Part shown: piece by piece, positions 33,997-41,455 of the stretch
Numbering within the stretch: position 1 is the stretch's first letter
How the letters are laid out: each line of letters begins with the position of its first letter
DNA from: an uncultured archaeon
GTDB lineage: Archaea; Thermoplasmatota; Thermoplasmata; Thermoplasmatales; Thermoplasmataceae
Length of the DNA stretch: 64,000 nucleotides
Reading direction: 5' to 3'
Assembly (NCBI GenBank): GCA_000965745.1
Contig: CP009479.1
Coordinates: forward strand, 1,248,001 to 1,312,000
The notes under the pieces: model-generated
Told to the model about the DNA's origin: nothing
Databases searched by the model: none
Seen by the model: only the letters and a program-made list of their open reading frames with translations
Translations under genes and position numbers: made by a program

Positions 33997-36453
33997 ATGG
34001 ACATTCATGGAAGTGGATCTGGATATTCCAACCCCAGTGAAGCAAGGCCTGAGTCCTGGGTAAGAGACTGGCTGTTTACAACAGACCATAAGAAAATAGG
34101 AATATGGTACTTTGCCACAGCATTTTTCTTCTTTCTGCTTGCAGGCTCAATAGCTCTTATGATCAGGACTCAGCTCATCCTGCCAAACATGCATTTTCTG
34201 GATGCGGCCCAGTACAGTGAGGCCTTCAGCCTCCATGGTTTCACGATGATGTTATTCTTCCTGACTCCATGGAACTTTGCGTTTGGCAACTATTTTGTTC
34301 CGCTTCAGGTTGGAACCAAAAGGCTTGCTTTTCCGAAGCTGGAGTCTCTCGCATACTGGCTGTATCTGCTGGGAGGCATTCTCCTTTTCACTGGACTGTA
34401 CTACCCGGGAGGAGCTTTGAATCTTGGCTGGACACTGTACGCGCCGTTGAATCAAGACGTATTCTTCCCGAATGTAGGTGACACAATTGCACTGTTTGCC
34501 CTGATGATGGAGCTCGTAAGCCTGATCATTGCGGCCCTGAACTTCATAGTTACAATAGTTGGAAGAAGGGCCAAAGGAATGAGGATGGTAGAGGTGCCCC
34601 TGTTCACATGGGCCATACTGTTTGTTAGTGTGCTTCTATGGTTCTCGGCACCCGAGCTTCTGGGGCTTGACACTACGCTTATTCTTGATCGTGTATTCCA
34701 TTTCAGCACTCTGCTCTCTCCAGCAGGAGGGGCTCTGCTGTGGGAACTTGAATGGTGGTATTTCGGCCATCCCGAAGTTTACGTACTGGTCTTACCTGCT
34801 GCGGGTGCGATAGCTGATATGACCAGTACTTTTGCCAAACGGCCTGTATGGGGCAAGAAGATGGTGATAGGAGCCTTCGGGTTTGTGCTCTTCATGAGCA
34901 TACTTGTCTTCTTCCATCACATGTTTATGACCGGCATCCTCATGCCAATGCTTCAGAACGCTTCCGTCTGGACCGAGACCATCTCGATACCGGTGGGAGT
35001 TATCTGGCTGGCCATAGTGGGAACAGTTGTGGGAGGCAAGATCAACGCCAAGAACCCCGCCATGCTATTCATAATCGGGGCAGGAATCAATGTCCTTGTC
35101 GGAGGAACTTCGGGGGAGCTCCTGTCAGCCATTGGAATGGACGTCGGGGTTCACGGGACATTCTTCGTAGTTGGCCACTTCCACTATTTTGTTGTTGGCC
35201 TTGGAGTATTTGGGCTCATTGCAGCAACCTACTACTGGTTCCCAAAGATGACAGGGTTCATGCTGAACAGAAAACTGGGGGTGATTCATTTCATCATATC
35301 CTATATCGGCATCAACCTGCTTTACGGCCCGATGTTCTTCCTTTACAACATGCCCAGAAGGTGGGCATTATACCCGCCCGGGCTTGGATTTACGACACCA
35401 AACTTCATGGCCTCAATTGGAGCCTACATATTCGGAGGGGCACAGGTTATACTCCTGGTGAATATGATCTACACCCTTTACAGACAGGGGCCAAAAGCCC
35501 CGGACAACCCATGGGGCGGATACCAGCCGGAGTGGCTCACCACATCCCCGCCACCAGAACACAACTTTGACGGCCTGATGAACGTAAAGCACACAAAGGA
35601 AGCCATCAAGATTACGTTCGAGCCTCTGAAGAAGATCTACAAGCCTGAACTCTCACCATATCCACTGATTATCTCCGTGGGCGCGTTCATATTCTTCACG
35701 GGAGTTGCACTCTACGTGATGTATTATCCGCCGATAGTCTGGATGGTTGGAGCTGCCATAGTGGCATACGGATTCATAGGCTGGATGTACCAGTCTGCCA
35801 GGCTTAGAGACTACCTTGGCGAAGATGTGCATGAGAGGAACATGAAAGGGTTCTCAGGAATAAATCTGACAGACTTCGGAATGTTCGGGTTTATAACAGG
35901 ATTTGTCCTGTTCTTCAGTTCCTTCCTGGGAACAGGCGTATTCGGCTACCTGCAGACAAAGGCGTTCTCCATACTGGGCGCTTTCCCGTTTTCGAACGAC
36001 CCGCCACTTGCCTTGGGTTCAATAATGCCTCACTATCAGATGGCGGCTGCCACTATCCTGGCAATCGTTTCGACGGTGGGATTGGGAGTTGCCTATGAAG
36101 GAGCAAAGTTGAGAAAATACACGGCAATAAATTCGGGCCTCGGGGCAGCTGCTGTGATGATCATAGCTGTTGTTGTGATGTATCTTTCCAGTTTTGCCAT
36201 AATGGGAACGGACGGATACGGCTTCGCAGCAGCGCACAACAGCATGCTTCTGTCAACGTTCTATGACAACTTCATACCTCTGACCGCATTCTTTGTGGCT
36301 TCGGCAGCAGTTGCCATTTACATGATGATGAACGCTCTGAGGAAGAAGATCACGATGACTCCGAGAATAACGAGCATGAGGGCATTGCTGATCTTCAACA
36401 CCTTCACAACAGCATTTGCAGTGATCGCGTACATTGTAGTTGGGGCGCTATAA
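33997..36453 (+). CDS. coxA: Heme-copper oxidase subunit I with C-terminal subunit III-like extension
   Basis: TTDHKKIG, LHG, GWTLYAPL, WYFGHPEVY, HHMF, HFHY, MPRR; about 270-aa hydrophobic C-terminal extension. Confidence 0.95.
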   Translation: MDIHGSGSGYSNPSEARPESWVRDWLFTTDHKKIGIWYFATAFFFFLLAGSIALMIRTQLILPNMHFLDAAQYSEAFSLHGFTMMLFFLTPWNFAFGNYFVPLQVGTKRLAFPKLESLAYWLYLLGGILLFTGLYYPGGALNLGWTLYAPLNQDVFFPNVGDTIALFALMMELVSLIIAALNFIVTIVGRRAKGMRMVEVPLFTWAILFVSVLLWFSAPELLGLDTTLILDRVFHFSTLLSPAGGALLWELEWWYFGHPEVYVLVLPAAGAIADMTSTFAKRPVWGKKMVIGAFGFVLFMSILVFFHHMFMTGILMPMLQNASVWTETISIPVGVIWLAIVGTVVGGKINAKNPAMLFIIGAGINVLVGGTSGELLSAIGMDVGVHGTFFVVGHFHYFVVGLGVFGLIAATYYWFPKMTGFMLNRKLGVIHFIISYIGINLLYGPMFFLYNMPRRWALYPPGLGFTTPNFMASIGAYIFGGAQVILLVNMIYTLYRQGPKAPDNPWGGYQPEWLTTSPPPEHNFDGLMNVKHTKEAIKITFEPLKKIYKPELSPYPLIISVGAFIFFTGVALYVMYYPPIVWMVGAAIVAYGFIGWMYQSARLRDYLGEDVHERNMKGFSGINLTDFGMFGFITGFVLFFSSFLGTGVFGYLQTKAFSILGAFPFSNDPPLALGSIMPHYQMAAATILAIVSTVGLGVAYEGAKLRKYTAINSGLGAAAVMIIAVVVMYLSSFAIMGTDGYGFAAAHNSMLLSTFYDNFIPLTAFFVASAAVAIYMMMNALRKKITMTPRITSMRALLIFNTFTTAFAVIAYIVVGAL

Positions 36454-36464
36454 GGAGGTGATCT

Positions 36465-36734
36465 TTGATAATGGAAAATAATGAAAATATGAAAAAGAAA
36501 ATGGAAACTCCGGTGAAGGAACCAACTACGCCGAAACCGGAGGAAAAATACTTCGAAGAGGAGGAGGAATATGAGGAGGCAAAGGAGCCTGTTGACGATC
36601 CTTACATCGAGGACGCCGGCACGACAAAAGGAGGCCCTTACTTCGCCTTCTTTGCAGCATTGATAGTCATGTCGCTGATGCTCGCTGTATGGCTCTTCTC
36701 AGCCCTGTACTTCGGGAGGTGGAACCTGATATGA
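36465..36734 (+). CDS. Small single-TM protein with acidic N-terminus; putative oxidase accessory subunit
   Basis: GGAGGTGA SD; translationally coupled to the next gene (ATGA overlap); one TM helix. Confidence 0.7.
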   Translation: MIMENNENMKKKMETPVKEPTTPKPEEKYFEEEEEYEEAKEPVDDPYIEDAGTTKGGPYFAFFAALIVMSLMLAVWLFSALYFGRWNLI

Positions 36735-37420
36735 ATACGAAAAGGGCAGCAATGATCGCTGGTGGGCTGTTTCTAGCAGTCTTTCTGGCGGCAGCTGATT
36801 TCACGATTGCGGTTCACCAGCCCACATGGCAGGACGTAGTCCCGGTGCAGCCGCAGCTTCAGCCACATTATCTCCCATGGTCCAACAACACTACCATGGG
36901 GACTGATAACGGGACAATAGCTATTCATATGAGTGCAGACCCTGGAACGCAGCCATACAACTTCAACGGCACATCCTGGGGGCGCCTGAACTACTATCTG
37001 CCTGCGCATGTGAACATCTGGCTCACTTTCACCAATAACATGAACATCTCGCACAGCGACCACCTGTTCAGGGCTCCTTCGTCCTGGAACGGACAGGAGC
37101 GCATACCGCAGGTTGCTGACCCCGGAGCGGCCGGATGGACTCAGATAGGTCCGGCAATTGGTTCGCTGCTGCCGACAACAGCTCAGTACAACAATGAAAC
37201 CGGACTGATTTCCAACACATCAGGGTACAATTCCCATTCAAATACAGTCTTCATCCCCGGGGAAAACCTGACCTCCGGGCTCTACCTGTTCATATGCGGA
37301 GTCCCGGGGCATGGTGAGGACGGGATGTATGCCTATGTCCACGTGAGCAACTCCATACAGAACCCTTACTATGTTGTTATCAACAAGGGCCTGACCTCGG
37401 GCCAGCTAGGAGGAAGATAG
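36731..37420 (+). CDS. Membrane-anchored blue copper protein (sulfocyanin/rusticyanin-like)
   Basis: N-terminal anchor, SHS His and YLFICGVPGHGEDGMY type-1 copper Cys/His/Met ligands. Confidence 0.88.
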   Translation: MNTKRAAMIAGGLFLAVFLAAADFTIAVHQPTWQDVVPVQPQLQPHYLPWSNNTTMGTDNGTIAIHMSADPGTQPYNFNGTSWGRLNYYLPAHVNIWLTFTNNMNISHSDHLFRAPSSWNGQERIPQVADPGAAGWTQIGPAIGSLLPTTAQYNNETGLISNTSGYNSHSNTVFIPGENLTSGLYLFICGVPGHGEDGMYAYVHVSNSIQNPYYVVINKGLTSGQLGGR

Positions 37421-37421
37421 G

Positions 37422-38351
37422 ATGGATGTAATAAGTATAGTTAACACGGTATTTGGATACAACCCGTCGTCCTTCACGAGGTCAAACTTCTGGTTTGACT
37501 TCATGAGGTACCTCATAATCGGGTTTGTAGTATCCGTAGGATTCGCCATATGGTTCTACATTGTGCACAGGAACGCGGCAAGAAGAAAGGAGGATCCAAA
37601 GGATGCAGTGAAGCCGGGCAGGATACCTTCGCCAAATGCAAGGACATACAAGAAAGTCTGGCTTGTATTCATCCTGCTGGTAATGCTGATGTTCTACAGC
37701 CTTATCGTTGCGTCTCTCCCGAATGATGCAAATGTCAGGACTCCGCCCGCATCCGTGCAGTCGCAGTACCAGCACAGCCTTAACGTATATGTCTACGGCC
37801 AGCAGTGGCAGTGGCAGTACTACATTCCGAAGTACCACCTGTGGTACCTCTACCAGACGAACCTTCCGGCCAACACGATAATCTACTTCCATGTCACGAG
37901 CCGGGACGTCATGCATGACTTTGCCGTCCCGGCTTTCAAGATAAAGGTGGATGCATTCCCGAGCCATTGGAATACAGTCTGGACAGAGGTGTCCACCCCG
38001 GGAACCTATATGGCCGAATGCATGGAATACTGCGGAATAGCTCATTATCTGATGAGATCGCCGCTGACAGTGATGACTTACGGAAACTTCACAACATGGG
38101 CACAGAACCATGCAGGCCAGAAACTGATCGGAGCCTACGGGCCATACGTTCAGGAGTCTGGCCTTCAGCCGCACACACTTCAGCACAACAACCAGGCACT
38201 TGCAAACCAGACAGCGGGCCTCCTTGGTTCGAAGAATGTAAACAGCCAGAGCAACAACACGTTCAGCGTACTTACAAAGAACCTGAACAAAGACACGCAT
38301 ACGGTAATGAGGCACATAATGGAGGACGGGTCCAGGCTATTCGAACTCTAA
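37422..38351 (+). CDS. coxB: Heme-copper oxidase subunit II (CuA)
   Basis: Two TM helices, GQQWQWQYY, SRDVMHDF, CMEYCGIAHYLM CuA motif. Confidence 0.94.
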   Translation: MDVISIVNTVFGYNPSSFTRSNFWFDFMRYLIIGFVVSVGFAIWFYIVHRNAARRKEDPKDAVKPGRIPSPNARTYKKVWLVFILLVMLMFYSLIVASLPNDANVRTPPASVQSQYQHSLNVYVYGQQWQWQYYIPKYHLWYLYQTNLPANTIIYFHVTSRDVMHDFAVPAFKIKVDAFPSHWNTVWTEVSTPGTYMAECMEYCGIAHYLMRSPLTVMTYGNFTTWAQNHAGQKLIGAYGPYVQESGLQPHTLQHNNQALANQTAGLLGSKNVNSQSNNTFSVLTKNLNKDTHTVMRHIMEDGSRLFEL

Positions 38352-38388: not shown

Positions 38389-39690
38389 GGTTCTTCCTAG
38401 TTTTGTGTGGGCTCATGGATAAAGCTCCAGATTTCCGCATTTGAAATATATTGCTGTCTTGAGATGGCCTCTGTTCCTGAATCCATACGCCATCTTCTCT
38501 ATCAGCGCGATCTTTGAATTGATTCCCTCTGCCTTTGCGTTTGTTATCCTGTGGATGAAATAGTTCAGTATCTTGTCGATGTGCATTCGCATCATCTTCG
38601 CCACCTTCTTCATTGCATCAATCGAGGAGTGCACGATCCAGGAGTGCCATCTCTTCCAGTAATCCATTGCATCCTCCATTGAGGGGAGATTCCACAGGTT
38701 CCTTATGTTCTCCTTCATGGAGTACGCCTTGCCCGTCCTTAGATCTGAATTCCTTAGCTCATTGTACCGCTCCCTGTACCTTTCGGGAAGGCGATCGCCG
38801 GAATAGAGCCATATGTACCTTGATCCTTTGAGGTCCATGATACCCTTCTTCACCAGTTCACGATTCTCCTCCTTCCTCACCGCATCAACCGCTTCATTCA
38901 CATGGCGCATGACATGAAACCTGTCGAAGACGATCTTTGAATGAGCCTGTGGTACATGCTCAAGCGTGGATGATATGTACGGATCCCACATGTCCATTGA
39001 TACCGCATCTATGCGAGATAATTCATCATCACTCATCGTTTTGTAATACTCATCGAGTGATGATTTCCTCCTGTCCATGGAGATGAACTCAACACCGCTG
39101 TTCTCCATGTCCATCACCAGCGTGATGTACTTGTGCCCCTTCCTGTACGATTTGTCATCAACGCCTATGATCCTTGGCCTTGATGTTTTCCTTGACAGTC
39201 CTCTCTTAACCGCATGATCGATGATGTTCCATGCCCGGCTCCAGGAAATGTCCATTACCCGGGTGAAATTCTCAACATCCATGTTCTGGAGCATCCTTAT
39301 GGATCTTGATTCGAATCTGAGAGTGAACCTTGATCTCTTCTCGGAGAGGGGCATGACCGCCTCTCTTATGCCATGCTCCGGACACTGTATCCTTGGTGAT
39401 CTGGCATGAATGAATGTCTTGAACCCTATGCTGTCAAGATCCCTCCAGACCCTTTCCCTCAGATGATCGTAGACCATGCACTCCCTCCTGCACTCGGGAC
39501 ATGGGAGCTTAGCTCCCCTGTCGTGTGCTATGAAGACTTCAACAACCTTGTCATTTGAATCAAGTGAAACACTCTCAACCCTCCAGGGGTTCTTGAGCCC
39601 TAAGAGCTCGGAGTACAACTGTTCAGCATCCTGCATGGCAAATATAATGAAAAGAAGGATAAAAATACCCACACATTTCTAGGATGAACC
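38389..39690 (-). mobile_element. Complete ISL3-family insertion sequence
   Basis: 23-bp imperfect IRs GGTTCTTCCTAGTTTTGTGTGGG / GGTTCATCCTAGAAATGTGTGGG; 8-bp target duplication ATTTTTTT at 38381-38388 and 39691-39698. Confidence 0.95.
38413..39636 (-). CDS. ISL3 transposase
   Basis: CPEC zinc finger, IGVDD, SMDMW, FDRFHV, TNAKAEGINSKI...AYGFRN. Confidence 0.95.
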   Translation of the reverse strand: MQDAEQLYSELLGLKNPWRVESVSLDSNDKVVEVFIAHDRGAKLPCPECRRECMVYDHLRERVWRDLDSIGFKTFIHARSPRIQCPEHGIREAVMPLSEKRSRFTLRFESRSIRMLQNMDVENFTRVMDISWSRAWNIIDHAVKRGLSRKTSRPRIIGVDDKSYRKGHKYITLVMDMENSGVEFISMDRRKSSLDEYYKTMSDDELSRIDAVSMDMWDPYISSTLEHVPQAHSKIVFDRFHVMRHVNEAVDAVRKEENRELVKKGIMDLKGSRYIWLYSGDRLPERYRERYNELRNSDLRTGKAYSMKENIRNLWNLPSMEDAMDYWKRWHSWIVHSSIDAMKKVAKMMRMHIDKILNYFIHRITNAKAEGINSKIALIEKMAYGFRNRGHLKTAIYFKCGNLELYP

Positions 39691-39703: not shown

Positions 39704-41455
39704 GTGATAAGAATCTTCAGTGAACAGCCCAACAGCAGAAGCTACCCGATGCGAAGCAACGCTTCAGGGAAACAGGGACTGAAATTTGTAGCCGTCGGCA
39801 TACTGTTCTCACTCGCGCTCATGTCATACTGGTACTTTGTCCAGGACGGCGTGGCGTTCATGCAGCCAGGAAAGGTTGAAAGGCTGATGATTCTCTTCTA
39901 CATTATTTTGTCATCTTCTATTTTCATGGTCGTCCACGGCTTGAGAAAATTCTACCGCCAATATATTGAAGAAACGGCTGAAGTCCAGAAAATCGTCAGG
40001 TTTCTCACAGTATTGTACAGCATATTCTATCTCTATTTCTCCGGGATCGTAGCGTGGCAGCCGAAAATTGACTTCACAAGAGTATACGGGGTCACACACG
40101 CAACTATTATCGGCTTCCCGGCGTCCGGTTCATTCGGCCAATATCCCTCTGTAAACATTTTCGCCCCTCCATCCTGGCATCTGGGGGCGGAGGTGCTTCC
40201 CCTTGATCTCATTCTGATGTCGGTGATTATTCCCATGGTGGCGCTCAATTTCGGGATAATCCTGACAACACTGCGCAGGCACAGGCGCATGAGCAACGCA
40301 CCACTAAACAGCACAGGTGTCGCCGCAACCATATTCACTTCGTGTCCCACCTGCGCGGTGAGTGCGATAGCTTTTGGTGTCAGTGGCATAGGGGCCGCCT
40401 CATGGTATGCAACGCTCGCGTCATACCAGTACCTCTTTGTGGCCATAGTTGTCCCCCTGCTTCTGGCTCTGCCCTTCATCAATGAACCAGCATTGAAAGG
40501 TGTATGTAAAATGACTAGTTTAAGTGATAAAGGTGTTAAAAGACCGTTTCTGTCACCTGGTTATGAAGATAAGAAAATCAGGAGCGGCGTTTCAGCAAAG
40601 GATTATATCAGCCTGATGAAGCCGGGTATATCATTCCTGCTCATAGTGGAGGCTGTATCATCCTATCTAATAGCAGATTCTCTTGCAGTGGGGATTGTGA
40701 CCCTGCTGTCGCTGATAGCTGCGGGCTTCCTCTCTTCTGGAGGGTCAGCTGCCATCAATAACTTTCTGGAGAAAGACAGGGATTCCCGGATGGAAAGAAC
40801 ATCTCGGAGGCCGGTCGCATCAGAAAGGATCTCACCAGGGAAGGCTCTGGTATTCGGCATTCTGTCCATATCATTTTCCCTGGCTATTTCCGCGATATTG
40901 ATCAACCTGTTTACAGCAGTTATGATCTCCTTTGGGGCAATCTCATACATATTCCTCTACACTCTGTTTCTCAAACCCAGGACCGAGATGAACATCGTAA
41001 TTGGAGGGATAGCGGGAGTCTTTCCAGCCCTGGCGGGTTGGTCAGCGGCAACAGGGTCTATCGGACCACTCGCATTTCTCATAGGGGCAATAGTTTTTCT
41101 CTGGACTCCACCACACTTCTGGGGGCTCGCGACAAAATACAGGGATGACTACAGGCTTGCAGGTTATCCTATGCTCCCAGTGAGCAGGGACATAAAAGGA
41201 ACCGTGAGGGCAATAACAATCTGGTCTGTTCCGATGCTTGTTGCGCCATTTGTTCCACTGATAATTCCCCAGATAGGCACTCTTGGCATTATGTATTATG
41301 GGGCTGCAGCAGTGGTTACAGCCATATTTGTCAAGATCGATGTGGACATGCTCAGGGAGCCGACGGAGAAGAACGCTTTCAGGGCGTTTACCTTTTCCAT
41401 ACCGTACCTGTTTGTGATACTCCTGGCAATGATCGCGGGAACAATCACACTTTAG
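39704..41455 (+). CDS. ctaB: Fusion of an unknown membrane domain (SCPTC) and heme o synthase (protoheme IX farnesyltransferase)
   Basis: C-terminal half has LMKP, D..MERTSRRP, LYTLFLKPRT..NIVIGG, WTPPHFW, DDYRLAGYPMLP. Confidence 0.88.
   Translation: MIRIFSEQPNSRSYPMRSNASGKQGLKFVAVGILFSLALMSYWYFVQDGVAFMQPGKVERLMILFYIILSSSIFMVVHGLRKFYRQYIEETAEVQKIVRFLTVLYSIFYLYFSGIVAWQPKIDFTRVYGVTHATIIGFPASGSFGQYPSVNIFAPPSWHLGAEVLPLDLILMSVIIPMVALNFGIILTTLRRHRRMSNAPLNSTGVAATIFTSCPTCAVSAIAFGVSGIGAASWYATLASYQYLFVAIVVPLLLALPFINEPALKGVCKMTSLSDKGVKRPFLSPGYEDKKIRSGVSAKDYISLMKPGISFLLIVEAVSSYLIADSLAVGIVTLLSLIAAGFLSSGGSAAINNFLEKDRDSRMERTSRRPVASERISPGKALVFGILSISFSLAISAILINLFTAVMISFGAISYIFLYTLFLKPRTEMNIVIGGIAGVFPALAGWSAATGSIGPLAFLIGAIVFLWTPPHFWGLATKYRDDYRLAGYPMLPVSRDIKGTVRAITIWSVPMLVAPFVPLIIPQIGTLGIMYYGAAAVVTAIFVKIDVDMLREPTEKNAFRAFTFSIPYLFVILLAMIAGTITL

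Follow-up and report, generated by a model that had tools for sequence, protein, structure and literature searches.

How protons reach the active site of a respiratory oxidase whose customary proton-conducting residues have been replaced is the question raised by four co-directional genes at positions 33997-38351 of a 64,000-nucleotide stretch of DNA (the window) from an uncultured archaeon of the Thermoplasmataceae (assembly GCA_000965745.1, contig CP009479.1, positions 1,248,001 to 1,312,000). The first of these genes encodes COX1-3, an A1-motif heme-copper oxygen reductase in which subunits I and III are fused (Table 1). The genome is complete, a single contig of 2.23 Mb, and the nearest named relatives of the oxidase belong to Thermoplasmatales-type archaea. 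The original prediction, made from the DNA letters, was that canonical D- and K-channel residues have been lost in a coordinated way from two subunits, and that proton delivery has been rewired, possibly with reduced pumping, to suit a steep pH gradient. We find that the loss of the K-channel is an old trait of a whole clade and that the D-channel, judged by its residues, is re-modelled rather than lost. The D-channel configuration is new, being the natural form of an arrangement so far made only by mutagenesis; in literature searches, no description of such a D-channel in Thermoplasmatales came to light, which is no proof of absence.

Channel residues and class of COX1-3

Sequences were aligned with HMMER and with MAFFT, using Mycobacterium CtaD (7rh6_R) as the reference for the canonical motifs. 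Bovine residue numbers refer to what we take to be the bovine sequence. They were cross-checked against a list for Paracoccus denitrificans (PMC3084760) and against the Mycobacterium alignment. HMMER pairs GAPDVAFPRLN of 7rh6_R with GTKRLAFPKLE, and TFLIAVPTGIK with TETISIPVGVI, in both cases without gaps. This agrees with the substitutions first read by eye (D91 to Arg, N98 to Glu, T316 to Val, K319 to Ile and a new glutamate in helix VIII), and neither a lysine nor an aspartate is placed at the canonical sites. In subunit II, alignment to the Thermus thermophilus caa3 subunit (2yev_B) pairs LEVVW with YKKVW, putting Lys77 in place of the K-channel entry glutamate, as expected from the earlier comparison of ETIW with KKVW. 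The metal ligands, the cross-link tyrosine and the GHPEVY glutamate are intact, as had been said: they occupy invariant columns (H80, H258, H307, H308, H394 and H396 for the histidines), and the CuA ligands of subunit II (H165, C200, C204, H208 and M211) are all present.

When the residue sets of PMC3084760 (P. denitrificans numbering) are applied, COX1-3 keeps four of the eight D-channel residues. N113, N199, Y35 and E278 are found as N98, N182, Y38 and E260, while D124, N131, S134 and S193 have become R109, E116, A119 and L176. From the K-channel set (K354, T351, S291 and Y280) a single residue of four is kept, as Y262, and E78 of subunit II is K77. Loss of the D-channel is therefore too strong a description: half of the canonical set is still present, with the terminal glutamate among it, and a carboxylate is found seven residues further in. 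With the neck (N98, N182 and Y38), S175 and E260 all kept, the alignment describes a channel with a changed mouth.

A second new glutamate, E172, is located in helix IV, at the position of Rhodobacter sphaeroides S197, which has been named among the residues bounding the D-channel (PMC10341450). In an AlphaFold model of COX1-3 (predicted local distance difference test score, pLDDT, 89.3; predicted template-modelling score, pTM, 0.92), helix III starts at residue 113. By the helix limits of the model, E172 is 12 residues, and E260 of helix VI 15 residues, away from the outer end of its helix; both would be near the middle of the membrane at much the same depth, with two carboxylates at the top of the channel. 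The model, which has seven extra C-terminal helices, superposes on bovine subunit I with a template-modelling (TM) score of 0.94 and a root-mean-square deviation of 1.7 Å. Foldseek aligns it to the caa3 I+III chain (2yev_A) with TM scores of 0.84/0.88 over 820 columns, and over the aa3/caa3 enzymes as a whole the scores are 0.88-0.96. So close an overlay makes an alignment artefact unlikely. The same residues are present in two other genomes of the genus, where synonymous codons that differ from genome to genome are used for R109, K114, E172, E374, V333 and I336, so they are not sequencing errors.

By sequence, fold, tree and gene order, the oxidase belongs to the A family and, within it, to the Thermoplasmatota COX1-3/sulfocyanin clade. 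Chains of A-family enzymes in the PDB match COX1-3 with E-values from 1e-110 to 1e-65, and no B-family ba3 chain matches it in the same search at an E-value limit of 0.001. COX1-3 has the histidine ligands, the cross-link tyrosine and the GHPEVY glutamate of A1 enzymes, without their canonical D- and K-channel sets. It does not fit the B family (ba3/SoxB), as E260 is present and V333, I336 and A273 form no alternative polar chain, nor the nitric oxide reductases, as Y262 and the three CuB histidines are intact and the gene adjoins those for a CuA subunit II and a sulfocyanin. These adjacent genes, the I+III fusion and the tree agree with the clade: among 248 rows, COX1-3 falls inside a 17-row Thermoplasmatota clade with a Shimodaira-Hasegawa-like approximate likelihood ratio test (SH-aLRT) support of 100. 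For annotators, the lesson is one of caution, since an A1 motif does not imply canonical channels.

Occurrence of the variant and constraint on the gene

Three samples were used: the best 120 of about 14,000 detectable homologues, 150 sequences representing the 50%-identity clusters of a set of 1.84 billion proteins, and 214 A1-motif rows with H-P-E-V-Y, a sample enriched for relatives. Two further genomes of the genus encode orthologues of COX1-3, with 93% and 85% identity; a fourth, 95% complete, has no COX1-3 gene. Four genomes from other genera of the family encode a 36-38% identical fusion in the same gene order (the Ferroplasma type). Outside the genus, the nearest sequences (40-50% identity) come from Candidatus (Ca.) Sysuiplasma. 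The sister grouping of the host genus with the Ferroplasma type has an SH-aLRT of 92, a detail that is unsure and may be an artefact, because two long branches are joined.

The pair of arginine and glutamate at bovine sites 91 and 98 is confined to one genus, in three genomes, and is absent from about 270 (248-270) other diverse oxidases examined. Among the best 120 homologues, 118 have Asp and Asn at these sites, and only COX1-3 and its 85% relative have the pair; among the 150 cluster representatives, the N98 site is acidic in COX1-3 alone. When residues 88-135 were used in a word search of 5.8 billion proteins, the motif was found only in the clusters of COX1-3 and of the 85% relative, the next matches all reading G-A-x-D-x-A-F-P-R-L-N. 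The entry motif is identical in the three genomes, save for one Leu/Met change just upstream. The E172 site is acidic only in COX1-3 and the 85% relative among the best 120 homologues, and in four others of the 150 representatives. Seven of the 20 departures of the lineage from columns that are at least 85% conserved fall in residues 105-119, and this clustering at the channel mouth points to directed remodelling, not decay.

The replaced residues had been called nearly invariant in the A family. This is borne out for D91 and N98, found in 202 and 198 of the 214 A1-motif rows (190 have the full D/N/N/N set), but not for the K-channel lysine, which is present in 86. Lysine occupies the K319 site in only 24 of the best 120 homologues; its place is taken by Leu, Ile, Met or Ala in almost every archaeal I+III fusion and in one bacterial clade. 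K319 is missing from all Thermoplasmatota COX1-3 fusions examined, the entry glutamate is missing from subunit II of four relatives, and on the 248-row tree the lysine was lost about 12 times. In its supplementary tables, PMC8239418 lists "Thermoplasmatales COX13" as "K-channel: no, modified" and assigns to Ferroplasma acidiphilum and Picrophilus torridus, classed as A1-type COX13, a leucine at K354 and a phenylalanine at E78 of COX2. Loss of the K-channel in both subunits is an old clade trait, already known and not special to COX1-3. The coordinated loss in two subunits is thus real, but clade-wide and published, so that for the K-channel the protein does fall in an already characterised group. 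What stands of the rewired proton delivery is the D-channel, with its entry Asp replaced by Arg and a carboxylate at the gate.

The proposal that the changes suit a steep pH gradient is weakened, since D91 and N98 are unchanged in the enzymes of the Ferroplasma type and of Ca. Sysuiplasma, which are just as acidophilic; adaptation to acidity is not supported as the cause. An acidic tail on the small subunit encoded next to COX1-3 was considered as a genus-specific proton antenna and dropped, as the Ferroplasma-type homologue has an acidic tail and yet retains D91.

Might COX1-3 be a redundant paralogue drifting towards loss of function in a host that relies on a second, GHPIVY-type oxidase? 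That second oxidase is encoded about 85 kb away, one genome of the genus does without COX1-3, an insertion sequence (IS) lies inside the gene cluster, and the stem leading to the host genus is long, at 1.04 substitutions per site. The tips beyond that stem are very short, though, and in the three species the proportion of synonymous differences (pS) is 0.65-0.74, which is saturated, against 0.03-0.10 for nonsynonymous ones (pN), giving a dN/dS of 0.02-0.05, with the subunit I part the most constrained. All ligands are intact, none of the three genes has a stop or a frameshift, and the IS is intergenic. We consider drift very improbable, and the related reading as a pseudogene was rejected on the dN/dS values. 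Such a burst of change, with strict conservation after it, is in keeping with an enzyme that was re-modelled and still works, not with a decaying paralogue.

Routes for electrons and protons

Homology and gene context suggest that electrons would pass from the membrane-anchored sulfocyanin, the probable donor, to CuA, then to the low-spin heme (H80/H396) and to the heme-CuB centre (H394; H258, H307 and H308; Y262). The sulfocyanin may itself be reduced by one of two Rieske/cytochrome b complexes or, as in Ferroplasma, by Fe(II); the sulfocyanin/fused-oxidase complex of F. acidiphilum oxidises Fe(II) and reduces O2 (PMC13741234). Two pairs of a Rieske protein and a long cytochrome b (about 560 amino acids, aa) are encoded at contig positions 684990-685971 and 2147495-2148516, far from both oxidase clusters, and are possible partners of the sulfocyanin and of a plastocyanin-like protein encoded beside the second oxidase.

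No polar chain is left for a K-pathway in helix VIII, helix VI or subunit II, so protons must enter via the D-pathway. There, the surface aspartate is replaced by R109, and the proton-accepting carboxylate would have moved seven residues inwards to the asparagine gate, where E116, one turn inside helix III, would be the relocated acceptor; E172 would line the upper channel beside the retained E260. E116 is read in this way because R109 and E116 are the counterpart of double mutants that pump. According to PMC7196763, proton uptake is nearly gone in D132N of R. sphaeroides, N139D alone is fast and non-pumping, and in D132N/N139D full pumping is back (the last citing Branden et al. 2006). In bo3 of Escherichia coli, D135N is rescued by an aspartate at 139 or 142 (PMC3840923, citing Garcia-Horsman et al. 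1995). By this analogy, E116 would be the functional entry and the enzyme may pump. Whether the channel with its relocated carboxylate delivers both the substrate and the pumped protons, making this a coupled enzyme, is in our judgement an even call, though still the likeliest of the readings considered.

Several considerations weigh against a coupled enzyme of this kind. The side chains of E116, E172 and R109 are placed relative to the water chain by homology and helix register. Glutamate is longer than the aspartate of the mutants, and arginine differs from the neutral asparagine; an arginine at the mouth could hinder proton entry. E172 could, from its place near E260, shift the pKa of that residue, which is what determines coupling in N139D. 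Canonical enzymes that lose K362 are blocked in the reductive phase. With Fe(II) or a high-potential sulfocyanin as donor, the driving force may be too low for pumping.

Oxidation of Fe(II) yields little free energy for pumping, and a natural uncoupled oxidase, in which the D-pathway brings substrate protons only and energy comes solely from charge separation between outside electrons and inside protons, is a possibility that we regard as somewhat doubtful. Such an enzyme, consuming cytoplasmic protons, would suit an acidophile with a high-potential donor such as sulfocyanin or Fe(II); the complex of Ferroplasma oxidises Fe(II) (PMC13741234). PMC7196763 reports that a carboxylate at the N98/N139 site abolishes pumping, with turnover kept or raised, in R. 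sphaeroides, P. denitrificans and yeast, and that N207D likewise abolishes it; the Ferroplasma type has a glutamate at the equivalent of N207. E172 beside E260 could also perturb the pKa of the latter to this effect. In COX1-3, however, D91 is gone as well, and the matching double mutant D132N/N139D regains pumping. Furthermore, strong constraint acts on the GHPEVY glutamate and on the subunit III domain, and the presence of two Rieske/cytochrome b complexes suggests quinol-fed respiration too.

The arginine might instead close the mouth of the D-pathway altogether, with protons taking another route via E327, E172, E374 or the subunit I/III interface. Besides the replacement of the entry aspartate itself, S101 and S157 are lost, and E374 replaces a common valine (found in 110 of the best 120 relatives). 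E327, the glutamate at bovine 310, is next to the threonine that neighbours a CuB histidine; it occurs in 52 of the best 120 homologues and, in rows from separate archaeal fusions and an actinobacterial-type clade, only in oxidases without the lysine (64 of 64 rows). A glutamate at 310 as surrogate for the K-channel lysine is suggestive from these sequences, although the association comes down to about six supported independent contrasts (sign-test p about 0.25), which is not significant. E327 is common to relatives with a canonical D-channel, so the genus-specific changes are not explained by it. The retained equivalents of N80, N163, Y19, S156 and E242 would be needless if the pathway were dead, and E116 is located exactly on the known pathway. 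We consider another route quite unlikely.

A stronger version of the coupled enzyme, a natural single-channel A-family pump moving eight protons per O2 through a stack of E116, E172 and E260 behind an Arg-capped mouth, we hold to be rather unlikely. If true, the K-pathway and the surface aspartate would both be dispensable for a coupled A-type oxidase, and evolution would independently have arrived at the recoupling otherwise seen only in the D132N/N139D mutant. In the debate on the coupling of pumping to oxygen chemistry, the asparagine gate and the entry aspartate hold a central place. Here, a natural enzyme fixed in three species presents the recoupled configuration with an extra buried glutamate and without a K-pathway. 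The host genus and the Ferroplasma type, with its glutamate at the N207 site, make up two natural test cases, which bear on whether a gate carboxylate sets the pKa of the terminal glutamate and on whether acidophilic oxidases fed by cupredoxins pump.

Gene cluster and comparison with known systems

In COX1-3, subunit I extends over about residues 1-545 and a seven-helix subunit III over about 546-818. The Pfam COX1 model matches with 357 bits, and matches in the PDB reach down to 1e-110. The Pfam and NCBIfam COX3 models give no match to residues 546-818, which are assigned to subunit III from the Pfam matches of relatives and from the fold match to the caa3 I+III chain. At the bovine Mg/Mn site, H368-D369 is replaced by H386-G387 (35152-35157); the glycine is also present in most archaeal fusions (consensus R-G-T-Y-W), and by its sequence COX1-3 probably lacks the Mg site.

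The small subunit has an N-terminal run of Glu and Asp and, after it, a single transmembrane helix with GRW at its end. The protein is conserved within the host genus and more weakly in the Ferroplasma type, and matches no known family. The sulfocyanin, product of the sole SoxE gene of the genome, matches Pfam SoxE with 67.6 bits (cut-off 21) and TIGR03094 with 80 bits, under the cut-off of 168, and has its copper motif C-x4-H-x4-M at residue 203. Its start is probably the ATG at 36731, which is favoured because it overlaps with the stop codon of the preceding small gene and gives the gene length seen in a relative. Subunit II matches TIGR02866 with 119.6 bits, under the cut-off of 147.7. The best NCBIfam matches, to CtaD/CoxA, sulfocyanin and CoxB, are all under the trusted cut-offs of those models.

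The genes for sulfocyanin, CuA subunit II and the heme O synthase CtaB are syntenic in relatives (loci L001 and L021). In the window, a complete ISL3 transposase gene separates subunit II from ctaB. No IS occupies this place in the syntenic locus of the 85% relative (L001), which makes the insertion a recent one; it may uncouple ctaB from the oxidase transcript. CtaB is encoded here by a single open reading frame (ORF) of 583 aa, the N-terminal domain of which matches no known family; the 85% relative has the two parts as separate genes, for 294 and 279 aa (L001:14413-16155).

Table 1. Features of the oxidase cluster and channel residues of COX1-3 (positions in the window)
Feature	Position	Strand	Remarks
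COX1-3, fused subunit I+III of A1-motif heme-copper oxygen reductase	33997..36453	+	818 aa
Small single-helix subunit, acidic N-terminal tail	36465..36734	+	89 aa; kept here in relatives
Sulfocyanin, SoxE-type blue copper protein, membrane-anchored	36731..37420	+	longest ORF from 36689
CuA subunit II, without cytochrome c domain	37422..38351	+	Pfam COX2 above cut-off
ISL3 transposase gene, complete	38413-39672	-	DDE_Tnp_ISL3 232.9 bits; zinc ribbon, helix-turn-helix; between subunit II and ctaB
Heme O synthase CtaB with 290-aa N-terminal membrane domain	39704..41455	+	TIGR01473 277 bits; Pfam UbiA
D-channel entry, residues 104-121	34306..34359	+	QVGTKRLAFPKLESLAYW
Bovine D91 to R109	34321-34323	+	changed
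Bovine N98 to E116	34342-34344	+	changed
Bovine S101 to A119	34351-34353	+	changed
E172, helix IV	34510..34512	+	site of R. sphaeroides S197 (bovine A153)
GHPEVY, residues 257-262	34768..34785	+	H258 CuB ligand; E260 D-channel top; Y262 cross-link Tyr
Bovine S255 to A273	34813-34815	+	changed
Helix VIII, former K-channel	34972..35004	+	T326, E327, V333, I336
Bovine M310 to E327	34975-34977	+	changed
Bovine T316 to V333			changed
Bovine K319 to I336			changed
Bovine S157 to L176			changed
E374, outer end of helix IX	35116..35118	+	lineage-specific
K77 of subunit II	37650-37652	+	site of K-channel entry Glu (bovine E62, R. sphaeroides E101)
Bovine Y19 = Y38			kept
Bovine N80 = N98			kept
Bovine S156 = S175			kept
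Bovine N163 = N182			kept
Bovine E242 = E260			kept
Bovine Y244 = Y262			kept

The second heme-copper oxidase (contig 1368412-1370100), of 562 aa, has GHPIVY without the helix VI glutamate, and its neighbours encode a CuA subunit II of 148 aa, the plastocyanin-like protein and another ctaB. It fits the description of the B family, and its type is present in most genomes of the family. The protein and its family-wide homologues have a conserved glutamate in helix IV (AMELIF) that aligns exactly with E172; judging from the alignment, it might stand in for the missing helix VI glutamate in GHPIVY oxidases.

Among known enzymes, the best structural match is to caa3 of T. thermophilus (2yev), also an I+III fusion, with 31% identity; it differs in being of the A2 type, its D and K residues are canonical, and its subunit II carries a cytochrome c domain. 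The SoxM supercomplex of Sulfolobus acidocaldarius (SoxM, SoxH, SoxE and SoxFG) likewise has a sulfocyanin-fed A1-type I+III fusion and a CuA subunit II, and no cytochrome c. SoxM, however, keeps the K-channel lysine ("hybrid" or "K-channel" in PMC8239418), and it is distant, not being among the best 120 matches; the COX1-3 cluster is without Rieske and cytochrome b genes.

COX1-3 of Ca. Sysuiplasma, in the same clade with 100% support, shares the missing lysine and the glutamate at bovine 310, but has canonical D91, N80, N98 and S101, and in the contig examined no sulfocyanin gene lies between subunits I and II. Some relatives are longer, at about 1035 aa (L022:6001-9117), because an N-terminal extension of about 235 residues precedes the COX1-3 part, and Pfam SoxE is recorded for one of them, which suggests that sulfocyanin and subunit I+III are fused there in one polypeptide.

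Closest in organisation is COX13 of Ferroplasma and Picrophilus (the complex of Castelle et al. 2015), from the same GTDB family. It shares the I+III fusion, GHPEVY, the order of small subunit, sulfocyanin, CuA subunit II and ctaB, the lysine-less helix VIII with TETISIP and the absence of the entry glutamate from subunit II. At 36-38% identity, the Ferroplasma type keeps D91 and N98 and has N80 changed to Ile and N163 to Glu, whereas the host genus keeps N80 and N163, has D91 changed to Arg and N98 to Glu, and has the extra E172. A natural carboxylate in the asparagine triad is also found elsewhere: a glutamate at N163 occurs in 17 of the 214 A1-motif rows, including the Ferroplasma type; in these rows N80 is always Ile, Val, Met or Thr, and K319 is often Gln. 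This variant corresponds, in nature, to the uncoupling N207D mutation. Two related acidophile lineages have put a glutamate in the gate at different positions, and only the host genus has exchanged the entry aspartate for arginine. In this it resembles the engineered D132N/N139D of R. sphaeroides and D135N with Asp at 139 or 142 of E. coli bo3, where the entry aspartate is likewise gone and a carboxylate is present at N139/N142 (bovine N98). The natural enzyme differs from these mutants in having Glu where they have Asp and Arg where they have Asn, together with S101A, S157L, a glutamate at S197 and no K-pathway.

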